From the NCBI GenBank assembly GCA_038063735.1, contig JBBTUN010000004.1, positions 106,646 through 170,645 on the forward strand: DNA of 64,000 nt, in the 5' to 3' direction. Origin of the DNA: Patescibacteria group bacterium (GTDB lineage Bacteria; Patescibacteriota; Microgenomatia; Curtissbacterales; GWA2-41-24). Under the pieces are notes generated by a model, which was not told where the DNA came from, did not search any database, and saw only the letters and a list, made by a program, of their open reading frames with translations. How positions within the stretch are numbered: position 1 is the first letter of the stretch; each line of letters begins with the position of its first letter. Position numbers and translations under genes: made by a program. Positions 3,874 through 63,586 of the stretch are shown one piece after another.

Positions 3874-3876
3874 TAA

Positions 3877-5655: not shown

Positions 5656-5664
5656 AATTAACTT

Positions 5665-12456: not shown

Positions 12457-12462
12457 TCATAA

Positions 12463-31151: not shown

Positions 31152-31882
31152 TTTATTTTTTAATACCTTCCTACAACGATTCCCACAACTTCCCAAAATT
31201 ATTGTCCAACATTAATAAATCAACACGAAAGGCTAAAAAGGTAATCATCGTGAGCGACGGCTCTACTGATAACACAAAAGAAGTTTTAAAAGGCCTAAGC
31301 TATAAATTCTTAGTAAAACTACTAAGCTATAAGCCCAATAGAGGACCCGGTTTCGCATTTAATCATGGTTTTGAGTACATACTGAATAAAGCTAATTCAA
31401 ATGACGTAATAATTACCATGGAGGCAGATAACACGTCGGACCATAAATTAGTAGAGAAACTTATTAAAGGTCTAGAAAAATCCGAGGTAGTTCTAGCATC
31501 ACCATATGCAAAAAAGGGTGGAGGGATTGTTGGTATAAGTATATTGAGAAAGTTGTTGAGCGTCGTGTCCAACAATTTGGACAAGCTTTTATTCCGAATC
31601 CCCAACGTTAACACGTACACCTCTTTTTTCAGGGCGTATAAGGTTTCCGCTCTATTAAAACTCAAAAAAGGAAATAGAAAAAATTTAATAGATGAAAATG
31701 GTTTTCCGTCGGTAGTAGAAATTTTAATAAGACTTCATAATTCTGGAGCAAATATAACTGAAATACCGTCAACGGTTGATTGGACAAATAAATCTGGTAA
31801 AAGTCACATGAACGTTACGAGAACTATAACCAGACATCTTGTAGTGTATAAAAATTATCTTCAGGGCAATTACAGCAAATGA
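31148..31882 (+). CDS. GT2 glycosyltransferase, likely a polyprenyl-phosphate sugar synthase (DPM1-like)
   Basis: LIPSYNDS…IIVSDGSTDNT…MEADNTSD motifs. Confidence 0.6.
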   Translation: MIYFLIPSYNDSHNFPKLLSNINKSTRKAKKVIIVSDGSTDNTKEVLKGLSYKFLVKLLSYKPNRGPGFAFNHGFEYILNKANSNDVIITMEADNTSDHKLVEKLIKGLEKSEVVLASPYAKKGGGIVGISILRKLLSVVSNNLDKLLFRIPNVNTYTSFFRAYKVSALLKLKKGNRKNLIDENGFPSVVEILIRLHNSGANITEIPSTVDWTNKSGKSHMNVTRTITRHLVVYKNYLQGNYSK

Positions 31883-32913
31883 AAAAAATAATTTCTATAG
31901 TGGGTACTAGGCCAAACTTCATAAAACTAGCGCCAGTAGCAGATAGCTTATTATCGACATATAAACACATCATTGTAAATACAGGTCAACATTACAACAA
32001 AGAACTCTCAAAAAACTTTTTTGATGAGCTAAAACTTCCCGAACCCAAATACAACCTGAAAGTAGGATCCAAAGAAAGCAAATTACAAATAACCAGCATG
32101 TTTATTAAGCTTTGTCCAATTCTAGAGAAAGAAAAACCATCTTTAGTTTTAATTTATGGAGATACAAATAGTAGCTTGGCTGGTAGTCTTGCTTCTGCAT
32201 ATAATCGGATTCCGATTGCTCATATTGAAGCCGGGATTAGATGCTTCGATAATTCTGTGCCTGAAGAGGTTAACAGAGTAATAATTGATCAAATTTCTGC
32301 CCTTTTATTCTGCCCCACTCAAACAGCTGTTGAAAACCTTAAAAAAGAAAGTATTCATAAAAATATACATTTCACTGGAGATGTCATGTATGACATATTC
32401 TTAAAAACAAAACCTCAGCCTATAAAACTTAAGTCGCCCAAGAAGTATTTCCTAGCAACTATCCACAGGCAGGAAAACACAAATAACAATACAAGACTTT
32501 TAAGTATTTTTAAATTCTTAAACAACCAAAGGATAAAAGTAATAATGCCTCTACATCCCAGAACCAAAAAAGTCATAGGAAAATTAACCAAAAATTATAA
32601 AAATATTGCCTTCGTAAAACCAATTTCTCACACTAATTTACTTTCTCTTATAAAAAAATCTTGCGGAGTTATTACGGATTCTGGAGGCATACAAAAAGAG
32701 GCGTACTGGCTGGGGGTACAATGTTATGTAATACGCAAATCAACCGAATGGCCAGAAACATTAAACAATAACAAATTAATAAAAAACATTGATACTGATT
32801 TTAAACTTAGGATAGAAAAAAGGCATCCCATCAATAAAAATTATTTTGGTGACGGAAAAGCAACCAAAAAAATAACATCTATTATTGCAGCTTATTTAAA
32901 CGACCCTGAGTGA
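31879..32913 (+). CDS. wecB: UDP-N-acetylglucosamine 2-epimerase (non-hydrolysing, WecB family)
   Basis: IVGTRPNFIKLAPV N-terminus and the HIEAG…TDSGGIQKEA motif. Confidence 0.75.
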   Translation: MKKIISIVGTRPNFIKLAPVADSLLSTYKHIIVNTGQHYNKELSKNFFDELKLPEPKYNLKVGSKESKLQITSMFIKLCPILEKEKPSLVLIYGDTNSSLAGSLASAYNRIPIAHIEAGIRCFDNSVPEEVNRVIIDQISALLFCPTQTAVENLKKESIHKNIHFTGDVMYDIFLKTKPQPIKLKSPKKYFLATIHRQENTNNNTRLLSIFKFLNNQRIKVIMPLHPRTKKVIGKLTKNYKNIAFVKPISHTNLLSLIKKSCGVITDSGGIQKEAYWLGVQCYVIRKSTEWPETLNNNKLIKNIDTDFKLRIEKRHPINKNYFGDGKATKKITSIIAAYLNDPE

Positions 32914-33658
32914 CTAAGAATATCTGTTTATCGCCTACAGAGATATATGCTGGCTCGAAGGGAGGAAAATCAAGTGCTCGAACAAAGTTATAAAATTTCT
33001 TCGGACTCCATTTTATATTAGCTTTTTTGTCTCTTAACGAGTTACGCGTATAATACCTAGCAATCTTTTCATTTTGAATTCGTGCTTTCACTGTTTTTCC
33101 TTGTTTGGCCTTTTCAATTATTATTGGTAGGTTTTTTGTAAAAACTCCAAGCGCAACTTTTTGTGCTCGCAGGTAGAGGCTGTAGCCCGTATCTTCAATT
33201 GAAATCGGTAAAGTTCCTTGAGCAATTATGGGCCCTGTATCAATACCAGTTTCAATATAATGCATAGTGACCCTATACTCCTTATCTCCATTCATGATCG
33301 CGTGTGCATAGCTATTACAACCTCTATATTCAGGAAGAGGCGCCGGATGTAAATTTATAGCTCCTAACGAACAATTTTCAAGATGTTGCGCTCCAAATAT
33401 ACCGCCATGCAATACACTAAAGGTAATATCAAACATAATATTATTCCACTTGCCCCAAGGAACAGTTTTAAATCCAAGTCTTTTAATTTCGTCCTCATCC
33501 ACCACATCTTTCCACCAAACCTTCTCAGTTTTTTTAGGAAAGCAGACTGCTTTGATTTCAACATCATCTCGTTTGGCAAGAAGCTTAAAACACTCAATGC
33601 CAAGCCATCTCGATCCTGCAAAACCCACAACTATTTTGTTGTTTTTCACAAATGCCAT
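32882..33658 (-). CDS. Formyltransferase (Fmt/ArnA-N/PurN-like), probable sugar N-formyltransferase
   Basis: INLHPAPLPEYRGCNSYAHAIMNG matches the formyl_transf N-domain HxSLLPxxRG-type motif. Convergent overlap with wecB. Confidence 0.7.
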   Translation of the reverse strand: MAFVKNNKIVVGFAGSRWLGIECFKLLAKRDDVEIKAVCFPKKTEKVWWKDVVDEDEIKRLGFKTVPWGKWNNIMFDITFSVLHGGIFGAQHLENCSLGAINLHPAPLPEYRGCNSYAHAIMNGDKEYRVTMHYIETGIDTGPIIAQGTLPISIEDTGYSLYLRAQKVALGVFTKNLPIIIEKAKQGKTVKARIQNEKIARYYTRNSLRDKKANIKWSPKKFYNFVRALDFPPFEPAYISVGDKQIFLVTQGRLNKLQ

Positions 33659-33731
33659 TTTAAAGTATAAACTTCAGATTAAGCAATACAAGTTGAATAG
33701 ATACTAAAAATATTAGACAATACTCGAAATT

Positions 33732-34712
33732 ATGAAGGTCGCAGTCATTGGCTTGGGATACATGGGCCAAAATCATGCTAGAGTACTTTCTCAATTAGAG
33801 GATGTCGAACTTGTTGCAGTGTGTGACATTGATGATTCAAAATCTGAATCATTAGCAAAAAAGTACAAGGTAAACGGATACTCAGATTATAAAAAAATGT
33901 TTAAAAACGAAATGCTTGACGCAGTTTTCATTTGCTTGCCAACGACACGTCATTACCAATCTGCTATTTTTGCTTTAAATTTAAAAATCCCTACATTCAT
34001 TGAAAAACCAATAGCGGCTACTATTACTCAAGCAAAAAAACTAGTTAAAATTTCAAAAACAAAAAAAGTACCTTTAATGATTGGACACATCGAAAGATTC
34101 AATCCTGTAGTTACTGAGATAAAGAATAGAATTAAATCAGGAGAACTAGGAAAAATAATACATATTCACACACAAAGATTTTCTCCACCGCCAACAAGAG
34201 CACAGGATGTCTCTGCCATAGTAGACCTTGGAACCCATGATGTTGATATAGTTAATTTTATAGCAGGTGAACAGCCAATTAGGATATTTGCAGAAACTGA
34301 TACCAAATACCACAAAAAAGAAGATCTTATGTCTGCAATACTCAGATACAAATCAGGAATCATAGGCTTAATAGAAGTAAGCTGGCTTCATCCGACAAAA
34401 ATAAGAAATTTAACAGTTTTGGGTGAAAACGGTATGTATATTGCAAATTACTTAACTCAAGAATTATTTTTTTATAAACAGAATGAATTAATCGTCAAAA
34501 AAACGACAATTCCATCGCCAATTCAAACCTGGGCGGACGTAATAAAAGTAGCTTTTGAAGCTAAAGAACCGCTTCAAATTGAGATAAGATCCTTTGTAAC
34601 TGCACTAAAAAATAAAACTGAAATGCCTGTGACCCCAGCAGAAGGATTGGCAGCATTAGTACTTATTGAAAAAATAACAAAATCAGGTGCTAGATGTAAA
34701 ATTGTAAAATGA
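33732..34712 (+). CDS. Gfo/Idh/MocA family NAD-dependent oxidoreductase (WbpB-like sugar dehydrogenase)
   Basis: MKVAVIGLGYMGQNHARV Rossmann N-terminus and EKP motif. Confidence 0.7.
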   Translation: MKVAVIGLGYMGQNHARVLSQLEDVELVAVCDIDDSKSESLAKKYKVNGYSDYKKMFKNEMLDAVFICLPTTRHYQSAIFALNLKIPTFIEKPIAATITQAKKLVKISKTKKVPLMIGHIERFNPVVTEIKNRIKSGELGKIIHIHTQRFSPPPTRAQDVSAIVDLGTHDVDIVNFIAGEQPIRIFAETDTKYHKKEDLMSAILRYKSGIIGLIEVSWLHPTKIRNLTVLGENGMYIANYLTQELFFYKQNELIVKKTTIPSPIQTWADVIKVAFEAKEPLQIEIRSFVTALKNKTEMPVTPAEGLAALVLIEKITKSGARCKIVK

Positions 34713-35980
34713 AAGTCGCGGTTATTGGCTTAGGTTACGTAGGACTCCCTCTAACGTTGCTATTATCGTCTAAAAATTATAGCGTAGTAGCAATAGACAA
34801 AAGCATAGAAAAAATAGAAAAGCTTTCAAAGGGAGTTCTGCCTTTTTCTCGCAAGGAGCCAGGCATAGTTGATTTTTTTAATAAATCTAAAATTAAACGA
34901 AACATTGTTTACTCAAACTCTTTCGAAAAGCTAAGAGAGGTCAACACTATTCTCGTTTCTGTGGACACTCCCACGCGAGGCAAAAACCCTGATTACAAAT
35001 CATTAAAAAGAGCTCTTCAATCTATAGCAAAAAATTTAAATAAAAAAACAACAATTATTATTGAGTCTACGCTTGCGCCAAAAACCACTAATAATTTAGT
35101 AATACCAATTATTGAGAAATACTCAAGCTACAAAATAAACGAGGAATTTTATGTAGCAGTAGCTCCAGAAAGAATAAGGCCAAACTATATATTTAAGCAG
35201 CTAACTACGTTATCAAGGGTTATAGGAATATCTAGTCCAACAATCAAAAACGCAATCAAAAAACTATATAAGGACATAACAATAGGAGATTTAGATTTTG
35301 TCGATCCCACAACGGCAGAAACTGTCAAAACGGTGGAAAATACTTTTAGAGACGTAAATATAGCGTTTGCCAATCAAGTTGCTATCGCCTGTGAAGAACT
35401 AGGTGTCAACGTGTGGAAAGTAAGAGACCTTGTCAATAAGTCACCTTTCCATAATTTGCATAGACCAGGATCCGGTGTTGGAGGTCATTGTATACCGAAA
35501 GATCCTTGGCTGCTCTCTTCCAGTGTTAGTAACAATAAACTTTCTATGATTAAGGATGCACGGAGAACTAACGATAATATGCCCATGCATTTATTTGAGC
35601 TTTTTCAGCAGGCACTCAAGGAAGAAAATATCGATCCTAAAAAAGCAAAAGTTTGTATTCTTGGTTATTCTTACGTTGAGGACTCTGATGATACAAGAAA
35701 CTCTCCCACAATATTACTGATAGATATTTTAAAAACTAAAAAAATCAATTTTACTCTTCATGACCCAAACGTGGATGGATTAAACGCAAATATTTTGAAT
35801 GCATTAAAAGGAGCTACCTGTTTAATCTTAACTGTTGGACACAAGGAATACAAAGATCTCACTCTTAAGAAGCTAGACAGTCTCCTCAAAAATAAAATAA
35901 TAATAGACGGAAGAAATTTTTTTGATAAAGAATTATTACAAAAATCCGGATTTACCTATAAAGGCATTGGCAATGTTTAG
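34709..35980 (+). CDS. UDP-sugar 6-dehydrogenase (UDP-GlcNAc/ManNAc dehydrogenase, WecC/WbpA-like)
   Basis: MKVAVIGLGYVGLP N-terminus and the catalytic GGHCIPKDP motif. Confidence 0.8.
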   Translation: MKVAVIGLGYVGLPLTLLLSSKNYSVVAIDKSIEKIEKLSKGVLPFSRKEPGIVDFFNKSKIKRNIVYSNSFEKLREVNTILVSVDTPTRGKNPDYKSLKRALQSIAKNLNKKTTIIIESTLAPKTTNNLVIPIIEKYSSYKINEEFYVAVAPERIRPNYIFKQLTTLSRVIGISSPTIKNAIKKLYKDITIGDLDFVDPTTAETVKTVENTFRDVNIAFANQVAIACEELGVNVWKVRDLVNKSPFHNLHRPGSGVGGHCIPKDPWLLSSSVSNNKLSMIKDARRTNDNMPMHLFELFQQALKEENIDPKKAKVCILGYSYVEDSDDTRNSPTILLIDILKTKKINFTLHDPNVDGLNANILNALKGATCLILTVGHKEYKDLTLKKLDSLLKNKIIIDGRNFFDKELLQKSGFTYKGIGNV

Positions 35981-37298
35981 TGCCCTGATAATTTTGGCCT
36001 TTGTTGTTCGATTAGCTTTAATGCCAATATCTGTTCACTCTGATTTATTCTTTATAAATTATTTTCCTAACTTAATTTACACTAAAAATGTTTTTGACAT
36101 ATTTTCCTTTACTCATAATGATTTATCAAAATTAAACGTATCCTACTACCCACCGATTACGTTTTACTTTTTTGGGTTATTTCAGTATTTCTATCATTTT
36201 TTGTCTCAAAGTTTTTCACCATGGATGACCCAGATTTATAACCTTAGGATGAGCGGTGTAAATGGACAATCTTATGATTACCTATCTAAAGCTCCAAATG
36301 AGCACATTTATAAGGATATATTTTTAGCAAAATTTCCATACCTCTTATTTGACCTATCTTCAATTTACGTGATAATGATATATGCAAAAAAACATCTTCT
36401 TAGAAAAAACGCTATTCTAGTTTGGCTCTTTAATCCTGTTATTTTGTATGGTGTTTACTTAATGGGGCAATATGACGTAATTCCAGCATTTTTTGTCCTT
36501 TTAAGTTTTCTGTTAATAAGAAAAAATGTTTATCTTGGAATCATTGTGCTTGGGGTTGCCGCAGCGTTCAAGAATTTTGCCTTTATTTTTATTCTTCCGA
36601 CTATTCTAATTTATATGAAAAGCCCCATCGAGCGCCTCAAGCTTGCAATTGTATCCTTTCTGCCATATTTTGTTTTCCTCTGTCCTACGCTCATTCATGA
36701 CCCAACAGCGGCAATATTTTCGTTCCTTCCTAAAGTTTATTTATCATACCGCAAGCCACTTGAAGACTGGGCACTTTACTCTCAATACATTAAGTATGGG
36801 TTGTTCATGTTAGGGTATGGAGTATTTTTGACTATGTCTTTTTCATTAAAAAGCAGAGATAAGTGGAGACTTGCTGTTGGACTTTGTTTGGCTTCCATTT
36901 TGCTCTTTTTTTCCTTTGCACCAAGAATCTCATTTCATTATCTTCTTTGGGGTGTTCCATTAATAATTATTTGGTATAAAAATTCAAAGACATCATTTTT
37001 AATAATATTAATCCAATCAATAAGCTTAGCCTCTTACAAATTATTGGCGATACAACTGCAACTAGGACTATTTGCTCCAATAAACCTCGCTTTTTCAGTA
37101 TCAACAACGTTTAATGGTTACGTAAATAATTTTTTCCCTTATCGGATAATTAGTACAATGGGATATTTTATTTTTCTTTTTACAAATCTATTTTTAATTA
37201 CTCAAATTATTTTAAACCTATTATTTAGCGAGCCTGCTCTCGTTAAAAATATTGAGAAGAAAAGAGAAAGAAAACAACTTATTTTTCAATCAAGTTAA
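35973..37298 (+). CDS. Polytopic membrane protein (GT-C-like, paralog of 51957-53333). The start is moved to the ATG at 35973, which overlaps the stop of the upstream gene.
   Basis: At least 10 TM segments. It shares a …YYPP… block with 51957-53333 (TTDYPPFAF). Confidence 0.45.
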   Translation: MFSALIILAFVVRLALMPISVHSDLFFINYFPNLIYTKNVFDIFSFTHNDLSKLNVSYYPPITFYFFGLFQYFYHFLSQSFSPWMTQIYNLRMSGVNGQSYDYLSKAPNEHIYKDIFLAKFPYLLFDLSSIYVIMIYAKKHLLRKNAILVWLFNPVILYGVYLMGQYDVIPAFFVLLSFLLIRKNVYLGIIVLGVAAAFKNFAFIFILPTILIYMKSPIERLKLAIVSFLPYFVFLCPTLIHDPTAAIFSFLPKVYLSYRKPLEDWALYSQYIKYGLFMLGYGVFLTMSFSLKSRDKWRLAVGLCLASILLFFSFAPRISFHYLLWGVPLIIIWYKNSKTSFLIILIQSISLASYKLLAIQLQLGLFAPINLAFSVSTTFNGYVNNFFPYRIISTMGYFIFLFTNLFLITQIILNLLFSEPALVKNIEKKRERKQLIFQSS

Positions 37299-38787
37299 AA
37301 ACTACGTAGTTATCATTATCAGCTATTGTTGTGTACTTCTTGTACATATAGTCACTAAAATTTTTATTTAAAAGAAGTTGGTTTTTGTATGAGCTAGCAA
37401 ATATTACCGCCCCCTGGCTCCTTAGCTTTTCTACTTCATCGATAGCATCAGAGACAACCATGTTACTAACTCCATAGAAACTAAAGTTCTCTAAGATCTT
37501 ATTCCTCTGCACATCGAATCCCCATCCCCTTCGTTGTGAATAAAAGACTAACGCTGGGCCTGCATCCATAGATCCAATAACAAGGTCATTCGGCCCTGTA
37601 TTCTTATTAATTACATCAGCAGTCTCTATTACGTAATTAAATCTATCTATTGGCTTATAAGCACGTTGATAAGTTGGTGCAAGCATTGTGATCAAAGTAA
37701 AAGCTACCAAAACAAAAATTATCAAACTCGGTTTAACACTTATTCTCCTTATTAAAGAAGACCACATATTTTCGCATGCAATTCCAATAAAAAGACATGC
37801 AATAGGCAACATTGGCAAGTGATAATACTCATGTGTCATATTGTGTTTGTTAAAAATTATAAAATAAGCAAATACACCGAACAACCAAAAATAAAGGAAT
37901 CTCTGATCAGGTTTCAGTTTTTGAAAAATGCCAACTATAAAGAGCAAAATGCCTGTAGGTAAAAGAACTAAATGATATTCAAACCCGAATACATTATAAT
38001 AATATTGGCGATTCCAAAATAAATTAATGCCGAACCAATTCCCAACAGAGAAGGCACTATGAGAAACCCCACTAAAATCTTTTAGCAAAAATCCATAAGC
38101 CGTCCACACTCCAACAGGTAGGCACGCAACAAAAAAGTATAAAAAAAAGAGCCTACCGATTTTGAGTTTAGTGGTTAAGATTAATAATAGTAATGGGAAA
38201 AGTAAGAAAATAATTGCTGGCAACTTTGTAAGTATTGCCAAAGATGCAAATATTGAACTAATTACAAAGTAAACTACTTTCTTGTTTTTGGTCCATTTCA
38301 AAAGCGTAAAAATCGCCGCCAAAGAAAAAGTGATCATCCATTGATCTGGCTGAAAACTTTTACTAATTAGAACAGATAAAGGAGAAAAAGTATAAAAATA
38401 TAAAGCAGTCAACGAACCGATATTTTTGGTAAACATTCTCGAAATTGAATATATAAGAAAAGCGGCAATCAACCACGCCCATACAGACACAGCTCGCCCA
38501 AGTGTTTCGTTTACACCGCCAAAAATTTTATATGTTAACACTACAATTGAGTTATAGATAGGCGCCTCCAAAAGAAAAATTTTTTTCTCAGGACCTAAAT
38601 AACTCACTTTTGGTTTTAGAAATTCACTATCATAAAAAAGATTTTTGGTAATTTCTGCTGTCTGAATTTGTCTTGAAGGATAAAATTCAAGAAGAGGAAT
38701 ATCTATTTTATAAAGTCTAACTGATAAACCGAAAAGCAAGATTATTAGAAATAATTTCTGATACGAGGTACTTTTAATTAAGTTCAT
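37279..38787 (-). CDS. GT-C family glycosyltransferase (ArnT/PMT-like). Last gene of the nonulosonic-acid operon.
   Basis: 502 aa with about 11 TM segments and a roughly 130-aa soluble C-terminal domain. Overlaps the upstream gene by 14 bp. Confidence 0.55.
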   Translation of the reverse strand: MNLIKSTSYQKLFLIILLFGLSVRLYKIDIPLLEFYPSRQIQTAEITKNLFYDSEFLKPKVSYLGPEKKIFLLEAPIYNSIVVLTYKIFGGVNETLGRAVSVWAWLIAAFLIYSISRMFTKNIGSLTALYFYTFSPLSVLISKSFQPDQWMITFSLAAIFTLLKWTKNKKVVYFVISSIFASLAILTKLPAIIFLLFPLLLLILTTKLKIGRLFFLYFFVACLPVGVWTAYGFLLKDFSGVSHSAFSVGNWFGINLFWNRQYYYNVFGFEYHLVLLPTGILLFIVGIFQKLKPDQRFLYFWLFGVFAYFIIFNKHNMTHEYYHLPMLPIACLFIGIACENMWSSLIRRISVKPSLIIFVLVAFTLITMLAPTYQRAYKPIDRFNYVIETADVINKNTGPNDLVIGSMDAGPALVFYSQRRGWGFDVQRNKILENFSFYGVSNMVVSDAIDEVEKLRSQGAVIFASSYKNQLLLNKNFSDYMYKKYTTIADNDNYVVFNLIEK

Positions 38788-40489
38788 ACTCTGTTCGTTT
38801 CAACATATTAAATATTTTGTCCGATGAGTTAGTTCCAAAAGAACAATAATCCAACAAAAACTTAGCTATCTTACTGTTTTTAGTCGCACTTCTACTCCTT
38901 AGTATTGTCTCTAGACAATGGTTAAGCTCTGATTTATTCTTTGCGACAGATACACCACTGTTTTCTAAGAACTTCTTGGGAAAAATCATTGAAGGAAAGT
39001 AGATAACAGGTTTGCCCATCAAAAGTGCGTATAAAGTTGCTGTGGTTGTCTGCCCGATGATTACATCTGAGCCTCCCAGTAAGTTTACCAAATCCGAATT
39101 TTCATCAAAGTATATTTTTAGTTTTTCTTTTTTTGCAATCGCCTTTAAGACTTTATCGGAAGTTCTCGGATGCAATCGAACAATAATGTTCGCGTTAATT
39201 GCAGTATCTCTCAAAGAGGCTAAAATGATTTTAAAAGTTTTCTCGGTGTTATTGAATTTGTACTGAGAAGAAAAGCCTTCAGCTTGGTGGTGTAAATACA
39301 ATATTTCTAGTCTAGATGACTTGAAGTCTCTTTTTGAATTAAATTTATTTAATTTATCAAAATTTGGCCAACCGCCAACGATTAATCTTTTTGCATCAAT
39401 CCCAAATTTCCCACACAACTTTTTAGTACTTTCTCCCCATACTTCAAAAATGTTAGCCACTAAGTATTTACTATCAATCCCGACATGAAGTCCGTGCTGA
39501 ATCTCAAGAGTTGGAATTTTATTTTTGTTAGCTTCTCTCAGCATTATTTGATTTGTCGAGTCGTTTGTAACTGCCACAACTTGTTTAACATTTATATTGC
39601 GCAGAAGATAGGAAAAAAAAGATTTGTAATTTTCAAGATTAAGCGCATCAACAATTACAACTGAAATTAATTTATCACTAAAAATTGGGTACAAGTCAAA
39701 ATTTTTGTACTTATAGATAGATCTAGATATTGACCGAAGCAAAATGAAATACCTAAACTTTAAAACCAAGTTAAAAATTAATGAAGATAAGTTAACTTCG
39801 CCGGTGTAGTTTAAAAACCTAATGCCACTTTTTACTAGCTCTGGTTCAGCCTGGCCAACTCTGCCTACAACTAAAAGAGAATTTTTCTCAAACTTTTTAA
39901 TTAGTGGAAAGCACCCTAGGATGTGGTAATGGTGAGCCAAAAAAAGCGTAACATCTTCATCTCCAAACACCGCAAAACTATTAAGTGATTTAATTTTTGG
40001 AGGCTTAAAAAGTTGTATCAGATGCTTGATTAAATTGATTTCTACAGTTTTGTTTTTTTTTACTCTTATTCCTTTTTCTTTACAAAGAAACTCGATAAGT
40101 GGTGATAGTGTTTCATGATCAAAGACAAAAAAACTTTTTACACCTTTCTTTTCTCTATCTATATAAACTGTAGTAGGCCGTTCTTTATCTAGTAGTGAAT
40201 TCAAACTTTCAAGTAAATATAAACGTTTGGCAAAAAAATGATGCAGACTGAGATTCAGAGAGCGCAAAACGTCACTTTCTTCACTAACCCAATCTCTGGC
40301 CCAGATCTCTGAGTGTTTACTGATAACATCTTTATTCGCTCGGTCGTAAAAGTCTTCAAAGTTCAAATATCTGATATTTTTATTTATCAAGTAAGTCTTG
40401 ACATCGTCATTTAGCGGTACTAGATGGTTTTTGTCATCGAAGTTAGACAAACTACTAATGTTTGACACGAAGGTAATGTTTTTTGCCAT
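38774..40489 (-). CDS. Soluble GT-B-like protein of the capsule-biosynthesis / TagF / sialyltransferase superfamily. Candidate CMP-nonulosonate transferase.
   Basis: 571 aa. An LHPR 'HP' motif followed by DVIIGQTTTATLYALLMGKPVIYFP. Co-operonic with the CMP-sugar synthetase. Confidence 0.35.
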   Translation of the reverse strand: MAKNITFVSNISSLSNFDDKNHLVPLNDDVKTYLINKNIRYLNFEDFYDRANKDVISKHSEIWARDWVSEESDVLRSLNLSLHHFFAKRLYLLESLNSLLDKERPTTVYIDREKKGVKSFFVFDHETLSPLIEFLCKEKGIRVKKNKTVEINLIKHLIQLFKPPKIKSLNSFAVFGDEDVTLFLAHHYHILGCFPLIKKFEKNSLLVVGRVGQAEPELVKSGIRFLNYTGEVNLSSLIFNLVLKFRYFILLRSISRSIYKYKNFDLYPIFSDKLISVVIVDALNLENYKSFFSYLLRNINVKQVVAVTNDSTNQIMLREANKNKIPTLEIQHGLHVGIDSKYLVANIFEVWGESTKKLCGKFGIDAKRLIVGGWPNFDKLNKFNSKRDFKSSRLEILYLHHQAEGFSSQYKFNNTEKTFKIILASLRDTAINANIIVRLHPRTSDKVLKAIAKKEKLKIYFDENSDLVNLLGGSDVIIGQTTTATLYALLMGKPVIYFPSMIFPKKFLENSGVSVAKNKSELNHCLETILRSRSATKNSKIAKFLLDYCSFGTNSSDKIFNMLKRTEYELN

Positions 40490-40490
40490 C

Positions 40491-41918
40491 TTACTGAAGC
40501 GAGCTTAAAAGGCCTGGGGAGTTGAAAGCCATTTTTTTTAAATTATTAATATCGCTCTTCTTAATATTTCTATTCATTTCAAGTATTCCTTCTTCAATTC
40601 CGATTTCTGTGTGGAAATCCAAAACTCTGTTGATTTTAGAAAAAGAAACTCTATAATTTCTTTTGTCTCCGACTGAATTTAAATTTTTAATAACGACATC
40701 TTTAGATAGTTTTTTTATCGTTTCGGCAATCTCGTTGATCGTGAAATTTGAATTATTTGAGCCTACATTAAAAATCTCGCCACTAATACTTTTAATCGGA
40801 GATTGCAAAACCATTTCTATTGCTCTTGCTGCATCCCTTACATGCAAGAACGGTCGCCATTGGTCACCTCCGTTAACCGGAATACCCTTACCTTGGCTAG
40901 CCAGTAATGTAAAAAAATTAACTACGAGATCAAACCTCGGCCTATGTGACCAACCAAACAAAGTTGAAAGTCTCAAAACGGTTGGTGAAAAATTCTGATC
41001 ACTTAATCTCAAGAGTTCAATTTCACTTTCAATCTTTGATTGAGCATACAGAGATACAGGTATAAGAGGAGATGTCTCTGCTAACAAATTTTCTGATTCG
41101 CTTGCTCCGTATACAGAACAGGTTGAAGTGAAAACTAACCTATTGATTTGAAACTTTTTACAAGTATGAGCAAGATTGATTGTGGCAAGGGTGTTGTCCG
41201 ATATAGCCAAAGTCGGATTAGCACTTGAAGCTTCATCTCCCACTATTGCTGCTAAGTGAACCACCGCATCAACATCCTTTGCAGCTTCTACCACTTCGTC
41301 AATATGCAAAACATCCCCCACAACTAAGTCAAATCCCTTATGCGCCCAAATTTTACTTAACGATTCCTTCCCAAAGCTTAAATTGTCCAAAACCTTAACT
41401 TTATACCCACTGTTTAAAAGCTTGCGAACTAAAACTGATCCTAAGTAGCCGGCACCACCAGTAACAAGAATTTTTTCAACTCGTTTTTCTGTCGATTTAG
41501 CCAAGGTAGTAAGATAGCTGAGTTTTCCGTCTGTATCAATTATTGCTACATCGATTGGTCTTCGGTGCTTATCGAGGATAGGCACCTGAATTATTCCGCC
41601 CGTTGTAGATAGCTTTGAAAGTGAAAGTGCTTTAATCCTTCTATCATTATCGCCCTTGTTTGCTGTAATTGGCCTCCTATTATATATATCCTTTATTTTG
41701 TCACTGTCGGCATGCCCCTCAAGAAGAGACCTTCTTAAGTCCCCAAAAGAAAGGACTCCCTCAAGCTTACCGCTGGATGAACACACAAGGACAATCTTTG
41801 CCCCCGCCTCGTCCATCATTCTTGCAGCTTTCTTAATAGTAGTAGATTCTTTTAGTAATATCTTCTTAAAATTTTTAATCACGTTATTTTTGAATTTTAA
41901 TAGGCACTCCAAACGCAA
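40491..41918 (-). CDS. CBS-domain pair fused to an NAD-dependent sugar epimerase/dehydratase (SDR)
   Basis: The N-terminal roughly 130 aa have CBS-like features (VLSFGDLRR, VAIIDTD). The C-terminal part has KILVTGGAGYLGS and YAQSK. Confidence 0.65.
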   Translation of the reverse strand: MRLECLLKFKNNVIKNFKKILLKESTTIKKAARMMDEAGAKIVLVCSSSGKLEGVLSFGDLRRSLLEGHADSDKIKDIYNRRPITANKGDNDRRIKALSLSKLSTTGGIIQVPILDKHRRPIDVAIIDTDGKLSYLTTLAKSTEKRVEKILVTGGAGYLGSVLVRKLLNSGYKVKVLDNLSFGKESLSKIWAHKGFDLVVGDVLHIDEVVEAAKDVDAVVHLAAIVGDEASSANPTLAISDNTLATINLAHTCKKFQINRLVFTSTCSVYGASESENLLAETSPLIPVSLYAQSKIESEIELLRLSDQNFSPTVLRLSTLFGWSHRPRFDLVVNFFTLLASQGKGIPVNGGDQWRPFLHVRDAARAIEMVLQSPIKSISGEIFNVGSNNSNFTINEIAETIKKLSKDVVIKNLNSVGDKRNYRVSFSKINRVLDFHTEIGIEEGILEMNRNIKKSDINNLKKMAFNSPGLLSSLQ

Positions 41919-42279
41919 TTTTTCCGGCTGGTATGTTTTTGTTTACAAAACTGTGGGCGCCAATTATTGCGTTTTTGCCAATAGTTATGTTGGGCATAAT
42001 CGTGGTGTGGCTTCCTATTCTAGCACCACTCTCAATTTTTACCGGCCCTCTTTTATTATCTATTGTAGACTCGGAGTATATAGAACAATGCGAACCAATC
42101 TGTACATCTTCTCCTATAAAAACTCCGTGTTTTGCATTGATATATGTGAAAGCGCCTATATCTGCACCACTATCAATTGTTAAATTCTTTCTGTTTTGGC
42201 ACATCCACTGCCATTTAGTCATACCTAATCTATTAAACTTGGGTTGTTTCCAGTGAACAAAACGCTGTGAGTTCTTCAT
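41884..42279 (-). CDS. Hexapeptide-repeat (left-handed beta-helix) sugar N-acetyltransferase (PglD/LegH/NeuD-like)
   Basis: Repeated [LIV]G-x4 hexapeptides: IGEDVQIGSHCSI…IGSHTTI…IGKNAIIGAHSFV. Confidence 0.7.
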   Translation of the reverse strand: MKNSQRFVHWKQPKFNRLGMTKWQWMCQNRKNLTIDSGADIGAFTYINAKHGVFIGEDVQIGSHCSIYSESTIDNKRGPVKIESGARIGSHTTIMPNITIGKNAIIGAHSFVNKNIPAGKIAFGVPIKIQK

Positions 42280-43418
42280 CTTCTTGCTCGTTCAACAGCT
42301 TTCTCAAGCGACAGGCAAACTTTTTCAATATCCGATTGCTTCATGTCTGTATAAAGCGGTAATGCTAAGCTGGATGCGCTTGTCGACTCACTGACAGGAA
42401 ATCTACCAGCAGAAGCATTAATTTTTTTCCAATAAGGTTGCAAATGAATTGATGGAAGATACGGCTTTGACTGGATTTTATTCTTTTTTAGTATAGCCAT
42501 TGTCTTGTTCCTATCAATGCTCTTGTCTAATAATACAATAAATGCCTGCCAGCTTCTGCTATAAACAGTATCGTCATCACGTAAAGTTTTAATTAAATTA
42601 TTCTTTTTAAGAATTCTCTTGTAGTAAAGTGCAGCCTTTTTTCTTGATGAAAGTATATATTTGATTTTTTTCATCTGCATCAAACCTACAGCAGCGCTCA
42701 TTTCATCCATTCTGTAGTTGAAGCCAAGTTTATCATGAGAAAGCCATTGTCCCGAATCACCCCTTCCCTGATTAATCAGGCTCTTCAAAAGAGTATAGTC
42801 CTCTTTGTTATTAGTCACAATCATACCCCCTTCTCCTGTTGTAATTTGTTTATTCGGGTAAAAAGCAAAAACTGCCAAATTGCCAAAATTGCCAACTTTT
42901 TTCCCTTTATATGTTGCTCCCAACGATTCACATGCATCCTCCACAATTTTCAATTTGTATTTTTCTGCAAGCTTTTTTATTTTTGCATAATTAATAGGGT
43001 AGCCAAATATATGAACGGGCAATATGGCCTTTGTGCTTTTTGTAATAGCCGACTCGATATTTTCGGGGTTAATATTCAAAGTTTCAGGATCTATATCGAC
43101 AAAGACTGGTTTAGCTTGGCAATATAAAATTGCATTTGCAGAAGAAACAAACGAAAATGGAGATGTAATAACTTCATCGCCAGGCTTAAGCCCTAAGGTA
43201 ACAACTGAGGCATGAAGGCCGGCTGTTCCCGAAGAGACAGCAATGGCATATTTTGTTCCGACAAAATCGGCAATACTTTTTTCAAATGCCTCCAGGTATT
43301 TTCCAAGTCCAAGAATTCCGGATCGTAAAACTTTCTGTACAGCTTTCTCCTCGTCAGTTGTAATAAATGGTGGACTCAATGGAATTAACTCTTGTGGTAA
43401 TTTATTAATTCTTTTCAT
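42276..43418 (-). CDS. DegT/DnrJ/EryC1/StrS family PLP-dependent sugar aminotransferase (LegC/PglE-like)
   Basis: 380 aa. AVSSGTAGLH motif and the family-typical length and composition. Confidence 0.8.
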   Translation of the reverse strand: MKRINKLPQELIPLSPPFITTDEEKAVQKVLRSGILGLGKYLEAFEKSIADFVGTKYAIAVSSGTAGLHASVVTLGLKPGDEVITSPFSFVSSANAILYCQAKPVFVDIDPETLNINPENIESAITKSTKAILPVHIFGYPINYAKIKKLAEKYKLKIVEDACESLGATYKGKKVGNFGNLAVFAFYPNKQITTGEGGMIVTNNKEDYTLLKSLINQGRGDSGQWLSHDKLGFNYRMDEMSAAVGLMQMKKIKYILSSRKKAALYYKRILKKNNLIKTLRDDDTVYSRSWQAFIVLLDKSIDRNKTMAILKKNKIQSKPYLPSIHLQPYWKKINASAGRFPVSESTSASSLALPLYTDMKQSDIEKVCLSLEKAVERARR

Positions 43419-44553
43419 AAAAATGTTTTTGAATTAAATTAAGATGTAAATTAATTTTTTCCAGTATTTTTGCGATTTTCTTACCGCTATGCCCATTGCC
43501 GTAAATATTGTCCTTTTTAAACCTTTTTTTGCCCTTGATTATTTTACTTATAGCAGTCTCTATTCTTAAAGCATCGTAGTCAATATCCACCACGTTACTG
43601 TTTCTTTCTCTGCCTTCCTGTCTAGTACCGACATTAACAACTGGCAACCCAAAGGATGAAGCTTCAATTATTCCGCTGGATGAGTTACCAACAAGAACAT
43701 TCGCAATTCTCAGAGTGTTAGCATAAATTCTTCTGTCCATATTTCTTAAGACTAGGTAGTCTTTTTTCGAACTGAATTTTTCAAGCTCATTGGCAATAGC
43801 GTTAGAACCAGGATCTCCATTAGGATAAATCAAAATTCTCGTGCACTTGATGTTTGATACAGCTTTTAATGTTTCTCTTATCTCTCGCCTTGCTGTAGTC
43901 GGAGATGTTGAAACAGGGTGTTGTAACAGAATTATTAAAGTGTTACCAATTTTGACACCCAACTTCTTAGAGAGTTCACCCTTGCTAATTACAGGTTCGC
44001 TCATAAGTTCATCAAGCCCGGGTGCGCCCACTAAAAATACATTTTTTGGATTTTCTCCCATCCTTAAAATCCTATTCATACTTTTTTTTGTCGCGGGAAA
44101 GTGGAAATGGGCAAGTTTTGTAATAGCGTGTCTTATAGACTCATCAAACCCGGCTTTAGAAAGATCCCCACCGTGGATATGAGCAATTGGGATTGGAATA
44201 AAAGCTGCAGAAACTGCGCAAGCAAGCGCTTCACTCCTGTCGCCACTTAAAACGACTAAATCTGGCTTAAGCCTTAAAAGAATTTTGGTAAATTCTAGTA
44301 TCCCGTTGCCTATCTCGAGACTAACCTTCCCCTCAATCTCTTCGTCTATAACAATGTTTACCTTAGCATCTATTGAAAAACCATCTCTATTAATCAGCTC
44401 GATTGTGGAGCCATATTTCTTAAGAAGATGAACTCCGGAGACAATAAGTTGTAAATCAAGACTTTTAGATTCGCTAATCGCGGTAACTACAGGCCTAAGA
44501 ATTCCATACTCAGATCTTCCGCCAGTAAAAACTGCAATACGTTTCCTTTTCAT
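43405..44553 (-). CDS. UDP-N-acetylglucosamine 2-epimerase, hydrolysing type (NeuC/LegG-like)
   Basis: IAVFTGGRSEYGILRPV N-terminus and GDRSEALACAVSAAFIPIPIAHIHGGD. Confidence 0.7.
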   Translation of the reverse strand: MKRKRIAVFTGGRSEYGILRPVVTAISESKSLDLQLIVSGVHLLKKYGSTIELINRDGFSIDAKVNIVIDEEIEGKVSLEIGNGILEFTKILLRLKPDLVVLSGDRSEALACAVSAAFIPIPIAHIHGGDLSKAGFDESIRHAITKLAHFHFPATKKSMNRILRMGENPKNVFLVGAPGLDELMSEPVISKGELSKKLGVKIGNTLIILLQHPVSTSPTTARREIRETLKAVSNIKCTRILIYPNGDPGSNAIANELEKFSSKKDYLVLRNMDRRIYANTLRIANVLVGNSSSGIIEASSFGLPVVNVGTRQEGRERNSNVVDIDYDALRIETAISKIIKGKKRFKKDNIYGNGHSGKKIAKILEKINLHLNLIQKHFYEKN

Positions 44554-45434
44554 AAGAGCCTATCGCCAATTTTAATTTTTCTTGGCTGCCACTTAGTAAC
44601 ATAAATCGCACCATCTCGGCATTTAACGATAAAACCACCCTTTTTCTTTTTTACAACCTCGCCATTTGCTCCTGGAAAGGTTTCATGCATTTTTCTTGCT
44701 TGCCATATTATTAACTTTTTTTCGCCAAACGTACAAAATGCGCCCGGATACGGCCGGGTTGTTGCTCTTATTAGCTTATCAATTCGGTCTAAACTCCAGG
44801 ACCATTTTATTTTTCCGTCCATTGGTTCTCTAGCTGGCCAATAATTACTCCTAGCCGGCTGCATAATTATTTTTATTGTTCCGTTTTCAATTTGGGGTAA
44901 AACTTTGTTAACCATTATTTTTCCAACAGCAATCATTTTTTTGTAAATACTAGCAGCGTCATCCTTAGAAGTAATCTTCCATTTCATTTGATATACAACG
45001 TCTCCGGTGTCTGCGCCTTCATCCAAATACATAAATGTCAGTCCGGAGACTTTTAATCCTTTTATTATCGACCAGGGTATTGGTGATCTACCCCGATTTT
45101 TTGGAAGAAGAGCCGGGTGAGTTCCAAGAACACCGATTGATGGTAACGTCAGTAATGTTTTTTTAACAATTTGTGAGAGGCCAAAAACCAACATCAAATC
45201 TGGTTTTAGTTTTCTTATCAAACTCACATTTTTATTTTCATTAATGTTTTTAAACCAAAAGTGCGGAATCTTATATTTTTTAGCAAGGTCAGATTGATCT
45301 CTGTAATCAGAGATGTTTTTTGAAAAATCTGGATGGACGTTGAAAACGCCAACTACATCGGCAAGTTTTTTTTCTAAAATCTCGTTCAGGCAGTACCAAG
45401 AGAACTCAATGCTGCCTATATAAACGACTCTCAT
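44550..45434 (-). CDS. Formyltransferase (Fmt-like), probable sugar N-formyltransferase
   Basis: GVLGTHPALLPKNRGRSPIPWSIIKG (HxxLLPxxRG motif). The C-terminal domain is Fmt-like. Confidence 0.7.
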   Translation of the reverse strand: MRVVYIGSIEFSWYCLNEILEKKLADVVGVFNVHPDFSKNISDYRDQSDLAKKYKIPHFWFKNINENKNVSLIRKLKPDLMLVFGLSQIVKKTLLTLPSIGVLGTHPALLPKNRGRSPIPWSIIKGLKVSGLTFMYLDEGADTGDVVYQMKWKITSKDDAASIYKKMIAVGKIMVNKVLPQIENGTIKIIMQPARSNYWPAREPMDGKIKWSWSLDRIDKLIRATTRPYPGAFCTFGEKKLIIWQARKMHETFPGANGEVVKKKKGGFIVKCRDGAIYVTKWQPRKIKIGDRLL

Positions 45435-45436
45435 AA

Positions 45437-46099
45437 TTAATCATTTCTGGCGTATAAAATTGAAAAAACTTCTGCATATTTATACCCGGATCTTAGACCT
45501 CTTTCCGAGGCAAGTATCGTTAACCCTTTTAAGGATCTGGGATGAGGGTATTCTTTTAATTCTGATTTGTAAAAACTCATAACCTCCAGCTTATTTTTAA
45601 AATTTAAAGAAATGTTCTCGAAGTAATTAAAAACCTGCTTGTTACTTTTTATTTCCGAAAAATTTGTTGTGACTGGAATCTCATAGCTAATAATCTGTTT
45701 AACTTCACTTCCATTCCATGGTCTAACAACGGAAAGAACATTACCGGTCACAATTTCATGGTCCAAATGGCAATCGAAAAGCGGTGGCGTGTAAATAACC
45801 TCGGCCCTTGTTGACTTGACTGCATTTGAAATTGTATCGGCTATCTCAAGTTGAGGATAACTGGAAAGAGAAGCTGCTTTGAACTTAGCATTAATAACTT
45901 TCCGAAATCCATAATAACTCCCAACTTTTTTTATCTCCTTTTTTTTTGCAGTTATATAACGGGCATCCCATTTCGGAGTAAAAGCGCGAGTCACAATGAG
46001 CCAGGACAAGCTATGGCCGCGAGATGAAAGTTTTGAGAGAGTTCCCCCCATTCCTATTGTCTCATCATCTGGATGAGCAGAAATTATAAGAATATTCAT
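45437..46099 (-). CDS. PIG-L/LmbE family N-acetyl-sugar deacetylase
   Basis: LIISAHPDDETIGMGGT signature. Confidence 0.7.
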   Translation of the reverse strand: MNILIISAHPDDETIGMGGTLSKLSSRGHSLSWLIVTRAFTPKWDARYITAKKKEIKKVGSYYGFRKVINAKFKAASLSSYPQLEIADTISNAVKSTRAEVIYTPPLFDCHLDHEIVTGNVLSVVRPWNGSEVKQIISYEIPVTTNFSEIKSNKQVFNYFENISLNFKNKLEVMSFYKSELKEYPHPRSLKGLTILASERGLRSGYKYAEVFSILYARND

Positions 46100-47208
46100 T
46101 CGACCATTTCTGAAGTAATTTCTTGGTCGGCGACAACAGAAGTTTTCAAATTCTTGTCCAGTAACTGTTCAAAGTCCATCGGTGATTGTCTGCCACGAGT
46201 TCTTTTAGGAATAAGCAAGTCAATAGTGACCTTGTCTCCTTCGGCCATATCATTCCTTGCCCTGACAGCTTTTCTAAAAAACTCTATATTATTTACCTCA
46301 GATGGTTGTACTTTTTTTACTCCATCGCCAAGTGCTTCGGGGTGTTTTATTTCTTTTGAAGGGGATGATTCGGCTTCTCTTATTAAATTAACCATTTCAC
46401 GAAACTCTTCTGTATTAAGAGAAGCTCTATGGTCGGGACCGTCCATTTTCTTGTCGAGTGTCATATGTTTTTCAATAGAAACCGCTCCAAGTCTGACTGC
46501 ATCTGCCGGTACAATCATGTCGTCGCCGTTATCGGAAAATCCCACCAATACACCATATTTTTGAGAAAGCTTTTCTTTAAATGTTTTAATAACATCGAGG
46601 TTTTGTTCTCGTGTAGGAGTAGGATAAGAAGATGTACAGTGGTAAACAAGGATCGTGCCTTCAAAACCATGTTCTTGTAAAAATACTAGGGATCTCTCAA
46701 CGTCTTCAAGTGTTCCACCCCCTGTTGAAAGGAACAATGGCTTAGATTTTAAATCAGGATGTTTTGCGATCTTATATAATAAAAGTCCGTTATTTAAATC
46801 CGGAGACGCAATTTTAATTACAGGTAAGTTTAATCTGGCTAATATATCTACACTTGTCAGATCGTGGGGTGTAGCATAGAAAATTATCCCCTTCTGCCAA
46901 GAATATTGCTGTAGTTGGACAAGTTGGTCTTCTGAAAGTGAAAGTTTTTTTAACATCTCGCGTTGGCTTTCGCCTTCGCCAGTGGTCTCTTTTTGGTAAT
47001 TCCCTTTGGATGCATCCTTAGTTGCAATCTCATCCGGGATAAAAATCTGAAATTTGACAGCGTCTGCGCCGACAGCTTTTGCTTGATCAATAAGTTTTCT
47101 TGCCAAATCCACTTGTCCATTGTGATTGACACCTGCTTCTGCAACGATAAAGCATGGTTGGCCAATTCCTACAGACTTATCCCCAATGCTTATATTTTGT
47201 CTTTTCAT
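46096..47208 (-). CDS. Nonulosonic acid synthase (NeuB/LegI/PseI family) with a C-terminal SAF domain
   Basis: GQPCFIVAEAGVNHNGQ and AVKFQ motifs. About 370 aa. Confidence 0.8.
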   Translation of the reverse strand: MKRQNISIGDKSVGIGQPCFIVAEAGVNHNGQVDLARKLIDQAKAVGADAVKFQIFIPDEIATKDASKGNYQKETTGEGESQREMLKKLSLSEDQLVQLQQYSWQKGIIFYATPHDLTSVDILARLNLPVIKIASPDLNNGLLLYKIAKHPDLKSKPLFLSTGGGTLEDVERSLVFLQEHGFEGTILVYHCTSSYPTPTREQNLDVIKTFKEKLSQKYGVLVGFSDNGDDMIVPADAVRLGAVSIEKHMTLDKKMDGPDHRASLNTEEFREMVNLIREAESSPSKEIKHPEALGDGVKKVQPSEVNNIEFFRKAVRARNDMAEGDKVTIDLLIPKRTRGRQSPMDFEQLLDKNLKTSVVADQEITSEMVE

Positions 47209-47246
47209 ATCGACGACATTGTAATTAATTGTTTAGTCAAATACAA

Positions 47247-47954: not shown

Positions 47955-47960
47955 AAGTAA

Positions 47961-49244: not shown

Positions 49245-49271
49245 TAGATAATATTCGCTTCTCCATACATC

Positions 49272-49322
49272 ATTTATTCTAAATTATATTCACTTCGCTT
49301 ATGTAATTTATTCTAAATTATA
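49272..49322. repeat. 17-bp perfect direct repeat ATTTATTCTAAATTATA, two copies at 49272-49288 and 49306-49322
   Basis: Seen directly in the sequence. The second copy overlaps the stop codon of 49313-50302. Confidence 0.8.
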
Positions 49323-56090: not shown

Positions 56091-56091
56091 A

Positions 56092-60635: not shown

Positions 60636-60646
60636 TAATTTAGAGC

Positions 60647-61756: not shown

Positions 61757-61778
61757 GATAAGTAATAAATGTTACAAG

Positions 61779-63581: not shown

Positions 63582-63586
63582 CTAAT

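Follow-up and report, generated by a model that had tools for sequence, protein, structure and literature searches.

The enzymes that transfer legionaminic acid (Leg) and pseudaminic acid (Pse) are far less known than the pathways that synthesise these sugars; beyond the flagellin enzymes Maf and FlmG, only KpsS1 (GT118) and the genetically implicated enzymes of Tannerella have been described (PMC5420450, PMC12887879, PMC6137143). In T. forsythia, deletion of Tanf_01245 or TFUB4_00887, whose orthologue in strain 92A2 is BFO_1060, results in loss of the terminal Pse or Leg derivative from the O-glycan, where the acceptor is N-acetylmannosaminuronic acid (ManNAcA) (PMC5420450). A ‘surface carbohydrate biosynthesis protein’ and a transferase of the LIC12162 family are encoded after neuABC in Herbaspirillum AU14040 (PMC6679464). 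Here, we analyse 64,000 nucleotides (the 64-kb stretch referred to as the window) of contig JBBTUN010000004.1 from a Patescibacteria group bacterium (assembly GCA_038063735.1), in which an operon for a CMP-activated nonulosonic acid (NulO) is followed by the genes for a 571-aa glycosyltransferase (GT) of the GT-B fold and a 502-aa membrane glycosyltransferase of the GT-C type. Judged from sequence and predicted structure, the GT-B is probably a CMP-NulO transferase.

Organisation of the locus

The original prediction, made from the letters of the window, held that a soluble 571-aa protein is encoded directly after a CMP-sugar pathway and directly before a GT-C at the end of the operon. The open reading frame (ORF) is confirmed by the ORF calls and lies on the minus strand, which had been left unstated (Table 1). 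It starts 1 nt after the stop of the LegB-like dehydratase gene, in a co-directional block that includes the CMP-sugar synthetase gene, and its own stop overlaps the start of the GT-C gene by 14 nt, which suggests translational coupling of the two proteins. The 3' end of the GT-C gene meets the plus-strand gene ending at 37298 tail-to-tail, with a 20-nt overlap, and the GT-C is thus the last gene of the block. Homologues of the 571-aa protein down to an E-value of 2e-98, with alignments that start at residue 1, identify the ORF as a real gene, and its product is indeed soluble, with a maximum 19-residue Kyte-Doolittle mean of 1.39 and no transmembrane (TM) stretch. No second member of its family was found within the window.

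The operon upstream of the GT-B is predicted to encode a complete Leg-type CMP-NulO pathway together with additional N-acyl-modifying enzymes; all six steps of the Leg type are represented, namely a 4,6-dehydratase, an aminotransferase, an N-acyltransferase, a hydrolysing 2-epimerase, a NeuB-type synthase and a CMP synthetase. The LegB, LegC, NeuB and PseF equivalog scores of the operon proteins fall under the respective cutoffs, so the exact stereochemistry of the NulO is not assignable. Apart from the GT-B, the block holds no other transferase gene of this kind.

Fold and conserved motifs of the GT-B

The AlphaFold2 (AF2) model of the 571-aa protein (pLDDT 80.5, pTM 0.83) contains two Rossmann-like α/β domains with an inter-domain cleft, and the model and its fold matches together identify the GT-B fold that had been proposed. 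A single-sequence search of the PDB returned nothing meaningful (best E 1.6).

Both the LHPR motif and the C-terminal block GQTTTATLYALLMGKPVIY, to which the original prediction had drawn attention, are present in the translation. In an alignment of 60 diverse relatives, which underlies all conservation counts for the GT-B motifs, position 438 is K or R in 59, H440 is kept in 56 and P441 in 58. HP occurs only once in the whole protein, and with this degree of conservation the motif is therefore no chance dipeptide. In the AF2 model it sits after the second β-strand of the C-terminal Rossmann domain, at the predicted nucleotide site, and in HMMER alignments its counterparts are the HP of KpsC, an enzyme with a CMP-Kdo (Kdo, 3-deoxy-D-manno-oct-2-ulosonic acid) donor, and that of TarL/TagF-like enzymes, whose donors are CDP-activated. 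Neither of the outcomes named beforehand as refuting the original prediction, a fold other than GT-B or the lack of HP at the predicted nucleotide site, was therefore observed.

A profile of the C-domain matches KpsC (6mgb/8fuw) with an E-value of 4e-6, placing ‘vrlHP’ opposite ‘VKVHP’ and the [ST][ST]...KPV block opposite SSQ/TSQ...GKPV; it also aligns with the TagF-like enzymes Cps3D, TarL and TagF, and the RLHPR region is in register with the VHP of KpsC and the MHP of TarL. Within the C-terminal block, every one of the 60 relatives has S or T at both position 482 and position 483, whilst K493 and P494 are kept in 54 and 57 respectively. The QHG motif of the N-domain is similarly conserved (Q in 52/60, H in 56/60 and G in 58/60), and its loop aligns with the catalytic GHVEAG loop of UDP-GlcNAc 2-epimerase. 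Near-invariant positions across the protein are P105, H332-G333, G352, G373, H440-P441, K493-P494 and F544.

Family placement

Five homologues of the 571-aa protein, with 29-36% identity, were found among 5.8 billion clustered proteins. The full protein itself is missing from this collection because its gene is truncated at the end of an ENA contig (L012; ERZ1292627, Hain_H51_01um, 6816 bp) that is essentially identical to 32.5-39.4 kb of the window and carries an identical GT-C along with a 99.5%-identical C-terminal fragment of the GT-B. The name of this contig suggests an origin in a 0.1-µm groundwater fraction; the related loci include one Ca. Saccharibacteria metagenome-assembled genome (MAG) and one Ca. 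Curtissbacteria assembly. A profile search of 1.84 billion representatives retrieved about 11 close relatives (E < 1e-100), all from bacteria of the candidate phyla radiation (CPR; Patescibacteria), with 39 sequences at E <= 1e-30 and 4203 at E <= 1e-3.

The best curated match is NF046086, the ‘BFO_1060 family glycosyltransferase’ (E 1.5e-11, 44.1 bits against a cutoff of 200, residues 353-535), and a further match is made to TIGR04396 (E 5.6e-9, 35.7 bits against a cutoff of 125); these two models are matched by 54 and 56 of the 60 relatives respectively. The Capsule_synth model PF05159 gives 20.1 bits (cutoff 20.0), over residues 411-500 only, and Glyphos_transf (PF04464) scores 18.8 bits, under its cutoff of 22.1. 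TIGR04331 (LIC12162 family) does not match the 571-aa protein, whose positional counterpart in locus L016 has a weak match to PF27859.

The original prediction had listed GT38, GT52 and GT80 for comparison, alongside GT99 (KpsC/KpsS) and TagF. Kinship with the first three falls away, as no sequence or closest-fold relation to their solved members is detectable. Among solved structures, TagF-like enzymes and KpsC (GT107) come closest; WbbB (GT99) gives an insignificant E-value of about 1 when the full profile is used and a marginal 0.015 with that of the C-domain. The GT-B belongs to a small and highly divergent clade within the TagB/LIC12162-like GT-B superfamily, found only in CPR/Patescibacteria and reaching none of the curated family thresholds.

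Association with nonulosonate genes

Co-occurrence was assessed in 13 informative loci, L003 being cut off upstream. In 11 of these (the window, L001, L002, L005, L006, L008, L010, L013, L014, L016 and L017), among them a locus from a Methanomicrobiales MAG (L005), the family member has both a NeuB gene and a CTP_transf_3 gene no more than about 10 kb away; L004 and L011 are the only ones with no NulO genes in view. A physical link is provided by P0157 (863 aa), in which an N-terminal CTP_transf_3 domain (E 1.5e-27) is fused to a PF27859 LIC12162 domain that has full-length homology to the profile of the target family (hhalign probability 98.7%, E 4e-16) and whose gene comes after the NeuB gene in a NulO cluster. 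The cluster around the fusion gene (L006/L007, 10001-12592) is Pse-like and also holds radical-SAM genes. A 696-aa relative that also carries a fused GT2 domain is encoded at L017 (9001-17441), in a Leg-type cluster and immediately before two flagellin genes of about 960 aa; members of the family may therefore also serve flagellin glycosylation.

Sequence variation within the locus bears on which protein reads the donor. Across L001-L003, the GT-B shows 32-36% identity, like the variable DegT, NeuB and NeuC proteins, with the GT-C at about 50% and the flanking genes at 50-75%. A variable protein among conserved flanks is the pattern expected of a donor-specific enzyme, and fits a GT-B that reads the NulO and a GT-C that does not.

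Pfam scans of the window, covering every ORF of 150 aa or more and a further seven below that length, detected no CDP-glycerol or CDP-ribitol synthesis gene (TagD, TarI/J type), and the only cytidylyltransferase detected is of the CTP_transf_3 (CMP-NulO/Kdo) type. Family scans for an alternative NulO transferase in the window found no Maf, GT38, GT42, GT52 or GT80 member; the Maf-family Pfam model MAF_flag10 has no match at E <= 0.1. A literature search surfaced no paper connecting CPR bacteria with nonulosonic acids.

Pairing of the GT-B with a specific GT-C

The GT-C assignment of the original prediction holds well. The 502-aa protein matches PMT_2 (48.7 bits against a cutoff of 26.1, E 1.3e-12), and its AF2 model (pLDDT 92.3) has a multi-TM GT-C fold for which Foldseek places ArnT first (5ezm/5f15; E 1e-9, TM-score 0.61-0.63), followed by STT3, AglB and PglB. 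Conserved residues are E34 (E or D in 35 of 36 orthologues), E74 (35 of 36), R98 and K188, and an acidic residue is conserved in the first extracytoplasmic loop. At least 65 orthologues with 38-54% identity were found, one of them named from Ca. Curtissbacteria.

All seven CPR loci with a visible upstream gene (the window with L012, L001, L002, L003, L013, L014 and L016) have a GT-B family member directly before the same GT-C ortholog. The junction is a 14-nt overlap in the window, L001 and L002, a 4-nt overlap in L003 and L013, and a gap of 1-2 nt in L014 and L016, and identity across the paired loci is 41-52% for the GT-C and 27-36% for the GT-B. L016 speaks in part against mere conserved synteny as the cause of the pairing: its downstream flank is a different one (sulfation genes), yet the trio of NulO operon, GT-B and GT-C is kept. 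The idea that the adjacency is a by-product of the roughly 12 GT-C genes in the window was rejected: the adjacent GT-C is 49-52% identical to its counterparts in L001-L003, against at most about 30%, local and with weak E-values, to the other GT-C proteins, and a 27%-identical GT-C paralogue (L015) has neither a GT-B partner nor NulO genes.

In L016 (9503-13201), genes for a sulfotransferase, an APS kinase and an ATP sulfurylase come after that of the GT-C orthologue. Their presence suggests that the same glycan is sulfated.

Proposed function and alternatives

The transferase idea of the original prediction is supported at the computational level by the BFO_1060 family match, the CMP-synthetase fusion and the recurrent NulO clusters. 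The donor, acceptor, catalytic residues and hand-over set out here are those that we infer from these patterns. The GT-B would be cytoplasmic, probably peripheral to the membrane, and would use the CMP-NulO made by the genes directly upstream, the donor sugar being a Leg-type 5,7-diamino sugar, probably with N-acetyl and/or N-formyl groups. The CMP moiety would be held by the C-terminal Rossmann domain through K/R438-x-H440-P441, D475, T482-T483 and K493, with the acceptor presented by the N-terminal GT-B domain and H332 of the QHG motif as the likely catalytic base. The acceptor would most likely be a lipid-linked glycan on the inner side of the membrane that may have a ManNAcA-type terminus, and the overlapping ArnT/OST-like (oligosaccharyltransferase-like) GT-C would perform the extracytoplasmic transfer step of the same pathway. 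This division of labour, with NulO addition inside followed by later transfer outside, is the course we regard as probable, and the overlapping or abutting genes found in every paired locus would agree with the passing of a lipid-linked intermediate to the GT-C.

Several observations weigh against a CMP-NulO transferase. The NF046086 and TIGR04396 scores are far under the NCBIfam cutoffs and the matches cover the C-terminal part, at most residues 353-565. The fold searches do not discriminate the type of donor, and their top matches are UDP-GlcNAc 2-epimerases and UDP-sugar enzymes of GT4 and GT28; at the profile level, the match to a UDP-Glc GT28 enzyme (1e-12) equals the TagF-like match in strength. 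Of the sialyltransferase hallmarks, the HP motif is in place, but the D/E-D/E-G motif, which carries the catalytic base, is absent from the 571-aa protein (no occurrence of the pattern [DE][DE]G), and the QxxxKD motif of Kdo transferases, which provides the Asp nucleophile after the first C-domain strand, is likewise absent. Guilt by association has also failed before for this type of protein: SpsB of Bacillus subtilis is TagB-like, has HP motifs and is encoded beside CMP-Leg genes, yet is dispensable for Leg transfer (PMC7439481).

E404 was considered as a KpsC-like nucleophile, as the catalytic Asp of KpsC aligns with G405/E404, and was rejected because its conservation does not extend beyond the close clade. 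With E404 discarded and both motifs absent, H332 is left as the best catalytic candidate.

The alternative that fares best, although we consider it unlikely, keeps the donor and changes the acceptor: the GT-B would be a polyprenyl-phosphate:NulO transferase that moves the sugar from CMP-NulO to undecaprenyl phosphate on the inner side of the membrane and, once this lipid had been flipped, the ArnT-like GT-C would hand its single NulO on to an extracytoplasmic surface polymer or protein, in a relay like that of ArnC/ArnT or CsbB/YfhO for a sialic-acid-like sugar. The constancy of the pair in seven of seven CPR loci, even with the changed flank of L016, would be accounted for, and ArnT, the best structural match of the GT-C, uses a polyprenyl-phosphate-monosaccharide donor. 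The island also contains further ArnC-like GT2, SMR-like and GT-C modules, with no Wzx or initiating phosphoglycosyltransferase detected by Pfam in the window, and KpsS, a distant relative, moves Kdo from CMP-Kdo onto a lipid (PMC12887879). Against this, the GT-C is far more conserved than either the GT-B or the NulO genes, as fits an enzyme by which the variable NulO is not read, and distant members of the family adjoin Wzx flippases or flagellins, not a GT-C. To our knowledge, no polyprenyl-phosphate-NulO has ever been described; if the relay were true, it would provide the first lipid-phosphate-NulO carrier and the first GT-C nonulosonyltransferase, and would explain surface decoration in ultrasmall CPR bacteria that have no visible Wzx/Wzy system.

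It is likewise unlikely that the GT-B is an ordinary UDP- or GDP-sugar glycosyltransferase that adds another sugar of the glycan, with the NulO moved by a different enzyme. The GT4 and GT28 UDP-sugar transferases among the top fold matches, the profile match to a GT28 diacylglycerol glucosyltransferase (1e-12) and the precedent of SpsB (PMC7439481) all favour such an enzyme. The family scans of the window, however, detected no other candidate for the NulO transfer, the HP, [ST][ST] and K/R pattern that aligns with KpsC is typical of GT-B enzymes that bind CMP or CDP, and the co-variation of the GT-B with the NulO genes would be left unexplained.

A TagF/TagB-like phosphotransferase, which would draw on a CDP-activated donor to add a polyol phosphate or a sugar phosphate to the glycan and not the NulO, is a quite improbable reading. 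The C-domain does align with enzymes of this type, but the Glyphos_transf score stays below the Pfam cutoff, a supply of CDP-glycerol or CDP-ribitol is not encoded in the 64-kb window, where the sole cytidylyltransferase is of the CMP-NulO/Kdo type, and the recurrent link to NeuB and the fusion with CTP_transf_3 point to CMP-NulO. A role in NulO biosynthesis itself, as a GT-B-fold enzyme that is no transferase (for instance a nucleotide-sugar hydrolase or 2-epimerase like PseG or NeuC), is very improbable: NeuC and UDP-GlcNAc 2-epimerases are the best fold matches, the family profile matches the NeuC of the window at 5e-11 and the 571-aa protein has a faint PseG match (E 0.05), but a bona fide NeuC over the equivalog cutoff is already present in the operon, the 571-aa protein is about 200 residues longer than these enzymes with an extra N-terminal region, its QHG, [ST][ST] and KPV motifs differ from the epimerase catalytic set, and a position behind the complete pathway, coupled to a GT-C, suits a transferase.

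Neighbouring genes and the wider glycosylation island

The coordinates of the GT-B/GT-C pair, the NulO operon and the surrounding genes are collected in Table 1.

Table 1. Features of the GT-B/GT-C locus and its surroundings (positions in the window)
Feature	Position	Strand	Basis
571-aa soluble GT-B protein, candidate CMP-NulO transferase	38774-40489	-	ORF and translation
502-aa GT-C membrane glycosyltransferase, ArnT/OST-like, final gene of block	37279-38787	-	PMT_2, AF2, Foldseek
GT-B stop/GT-C start overlap, 14 nt, ATGAACTTAATTAA	38774-38787	-	read from sequence
RLHPR, K/R-x-H-P motif, predicted nucleotide-phosphate binding	39164-39178 (residues 438-442)	-	translation
QHG, GT-B N-domain	39491-39499 (residues 331-333)	-	translation
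GQTTTATLYALLMGKPVIY, helix-start [ST][ST] dipeptide, then KPV	38999-39055 (residues 479-497)	-	translation
GT-B protein, N-terminal α/β accessory region	residues ~1-175
GT-B protein, GT-B N-domain	residues ~176-385
GT-B protein, GT-B C-domain	residues ~386-571
NulO operon	40491-50302	-
SDR (short-chain dehydrogenase/reductase)	49313-50302	-	Pfam/NCBIfam
C-methyltransferase, TylC3-type (Methyltransf_13/14)	47961-49244	-	Pfam/NCBIfam
CMP-NulO synthetase, CTP_transf_3	47247-47954	-	Pfam/NCBIfam
NeuB-type synthase	46096-47208	-	Pfam/NCBIfam
PIG-L deacetylase	45437-46099	-	Pfam/NCBIfam
Formyltransferase, ArnA-like	44550-45434	-	Pfam/NCBIfam
NeuC-type hydrolysing 2-epimerase	43405-44553	-	414.6 bits against equivalog cutoff 235.9
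LegC/PseC-like aminotransferase	42276-43418	-	Pfam/NCBIfam
Hexapeptide acyltransferase, 131 aa	41884-42279	-	Pfam/NCBIfam
CBS-fused LegB-like 4,6-dehydratase	40491-41918	-	Pfam/NCBIfam
Convergent co-conserved neighbours of the pair	31879-37298	+	Pfam/NCBIfam
WecB	31879-32913	+	262 bits against equivalog cutoff 210
GFO oxidoreductase	33732-34712	+
UDP-ManNAc-dehydrogenase-like protein	34709-35980	+
8-TM protein	35922-37298	+
GT-C-like/multi-TM proteins	680-7251 (+), 7274-8812 (-), 10951-12060 (+), 26190-30144 (+), 35922-37298 (+), 51957-53333 (-), 54411-57768

Within the operon, the LegB-like dehydratase (40491-41918) carries an N-terminal CBS domain of about 140 residues, and the same fusion is found in L002 with 56% identity. 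The formyltransferase/PIG-L pair (44550-46099) is not conserved in L001, where a PglD-type acetyltransferase occurs instead, and a second formyltransferase (32882-33658, minus) lies on the opposite strand inside the plus-strand operon; the formyltransferases and the deacetylase suggest N-formylated sugars. The C-methyltransferase and SDR genes (47961-50302), directly upstream of the CMP-NulO synthetase, are the most conserved of the block, with 65-75% identity in L001 and L002, and may serve NulO modification or a separate branched-sugar pathway.

The convergent plus-strand genes have orthologues in L001, L002 and L003 with 43-60% identity. WecB and the UDP-ManNAc-dehydrogenase-like protein would allow, speculatively, for an acceptor of the ManNAcA type, as in T. 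forsythia.

The window as a whole forms a single large glycosylation island, in which about 12 multi-TM proteins are GT-C-like or unannotated. Four tandem PMT_2 genes lie at 680-7251 (plus), and several multi-TM proteins, including those at 26190 and 35922, have no family match and 8-10 predicted TM segments. Possible ArnC/ArnE/ArnT-like modules are found at 12088-13143 (plus), 14031-14384 (plus) and 51215-51994 (minus). A 122-aa SMR/EamA-like protein is encoded directly upstream of a 226-aa GT2, and the window also holds a DUF2304 protein and a GT2 resembling the polyprenyl-phosphate sugar synthases PgfS, ArnC and PpgS; neither a Wzx flippase nor an initiating phosphoglycosyltransferase was detected by Pfam in the window. 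At the window edge (59994-63961, minus), a thiamine-diphosphate enzyme (acetolactate-synthase-like, 600 aa), a DegT aminotransferase, a GNAT protein and a DmpG-like fragment may form a pathway for a branched-chain or unusual N-acyl sugar.

Comparison with known systems

If the GT-B is a CMP-NulO transferase, the locus provides a concrete candidate for a Leg-type transferase and a testable pair for the role of a GT-C in NulO display, together with genomic evidence that ultrasmall groundwater bacteria can synthesise nonulosonic acids and attach them to their surface, which bears on epibiont-host recognition. If the assignment is wrong, as it was for SpsB, the locus would be a further warning on assigning function by association in this superfamily.

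Like the BFO_1060 family of Tannerella, the GT-B is a soluble TagB-like protein with an HP motif that is encoded directly after a CMP-NulO pathway, and a putative supply of ManNAcA, the acceptor in T. forsythia (PMC5420450), is encoded nearby. It differs in length (571 against 445 aa, about 125 residues longer), in lacking the D/E-D/E-G motif reported for the Tannerella enzymes, and in being coupled to a GT-C and not placed within a Bacteroidota O-glycosylation locus. The LIC12162 (PF27859/TIGR04331) and TIGR04396 families also sit downstream of neuABC-type genes (PMC6679464), but the GT-B is under both NCBIfam cutoffs, and the functions of these families are biochemically uncharacterised.

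KpsC, KpsS, KpsS1 and WbbB (GT107, GT118 and GT99; Capsule_synth) are of the GT-B type as well and use CMP-activated ulosonic acids, with HP and S/T-S motifs of the C-domain in register with those of the 571-aa protein. Unlike the KpsC group, the latter has no QxxxKD Asp nucleophile, and its N-terminal half is unrelated by sequence. In contrast to TagF, TarL and Cps3D, the locus has no CDP-alditol supply and its context is that of NulO instead of teichoic acid.

The GT-C resembles ArnT (GT83) and the oligosaccharyltransferases in its PMT_2 domain and in the conserved acidic and basic residues of its first loops, but is only 13-14% identical to them, and its donor may be either a polyprenyl-P-monosaccharide or a polyprenyl-PP-glycan. 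It is the sole one of the roughly 12 GT-C-like proteins of the window to be paired with the GT-B. What is new relative to these systems is a CPR-specific GT-B clade, lying outside curated thresholds, that is coupled to one specific ArnT-like GT-C.

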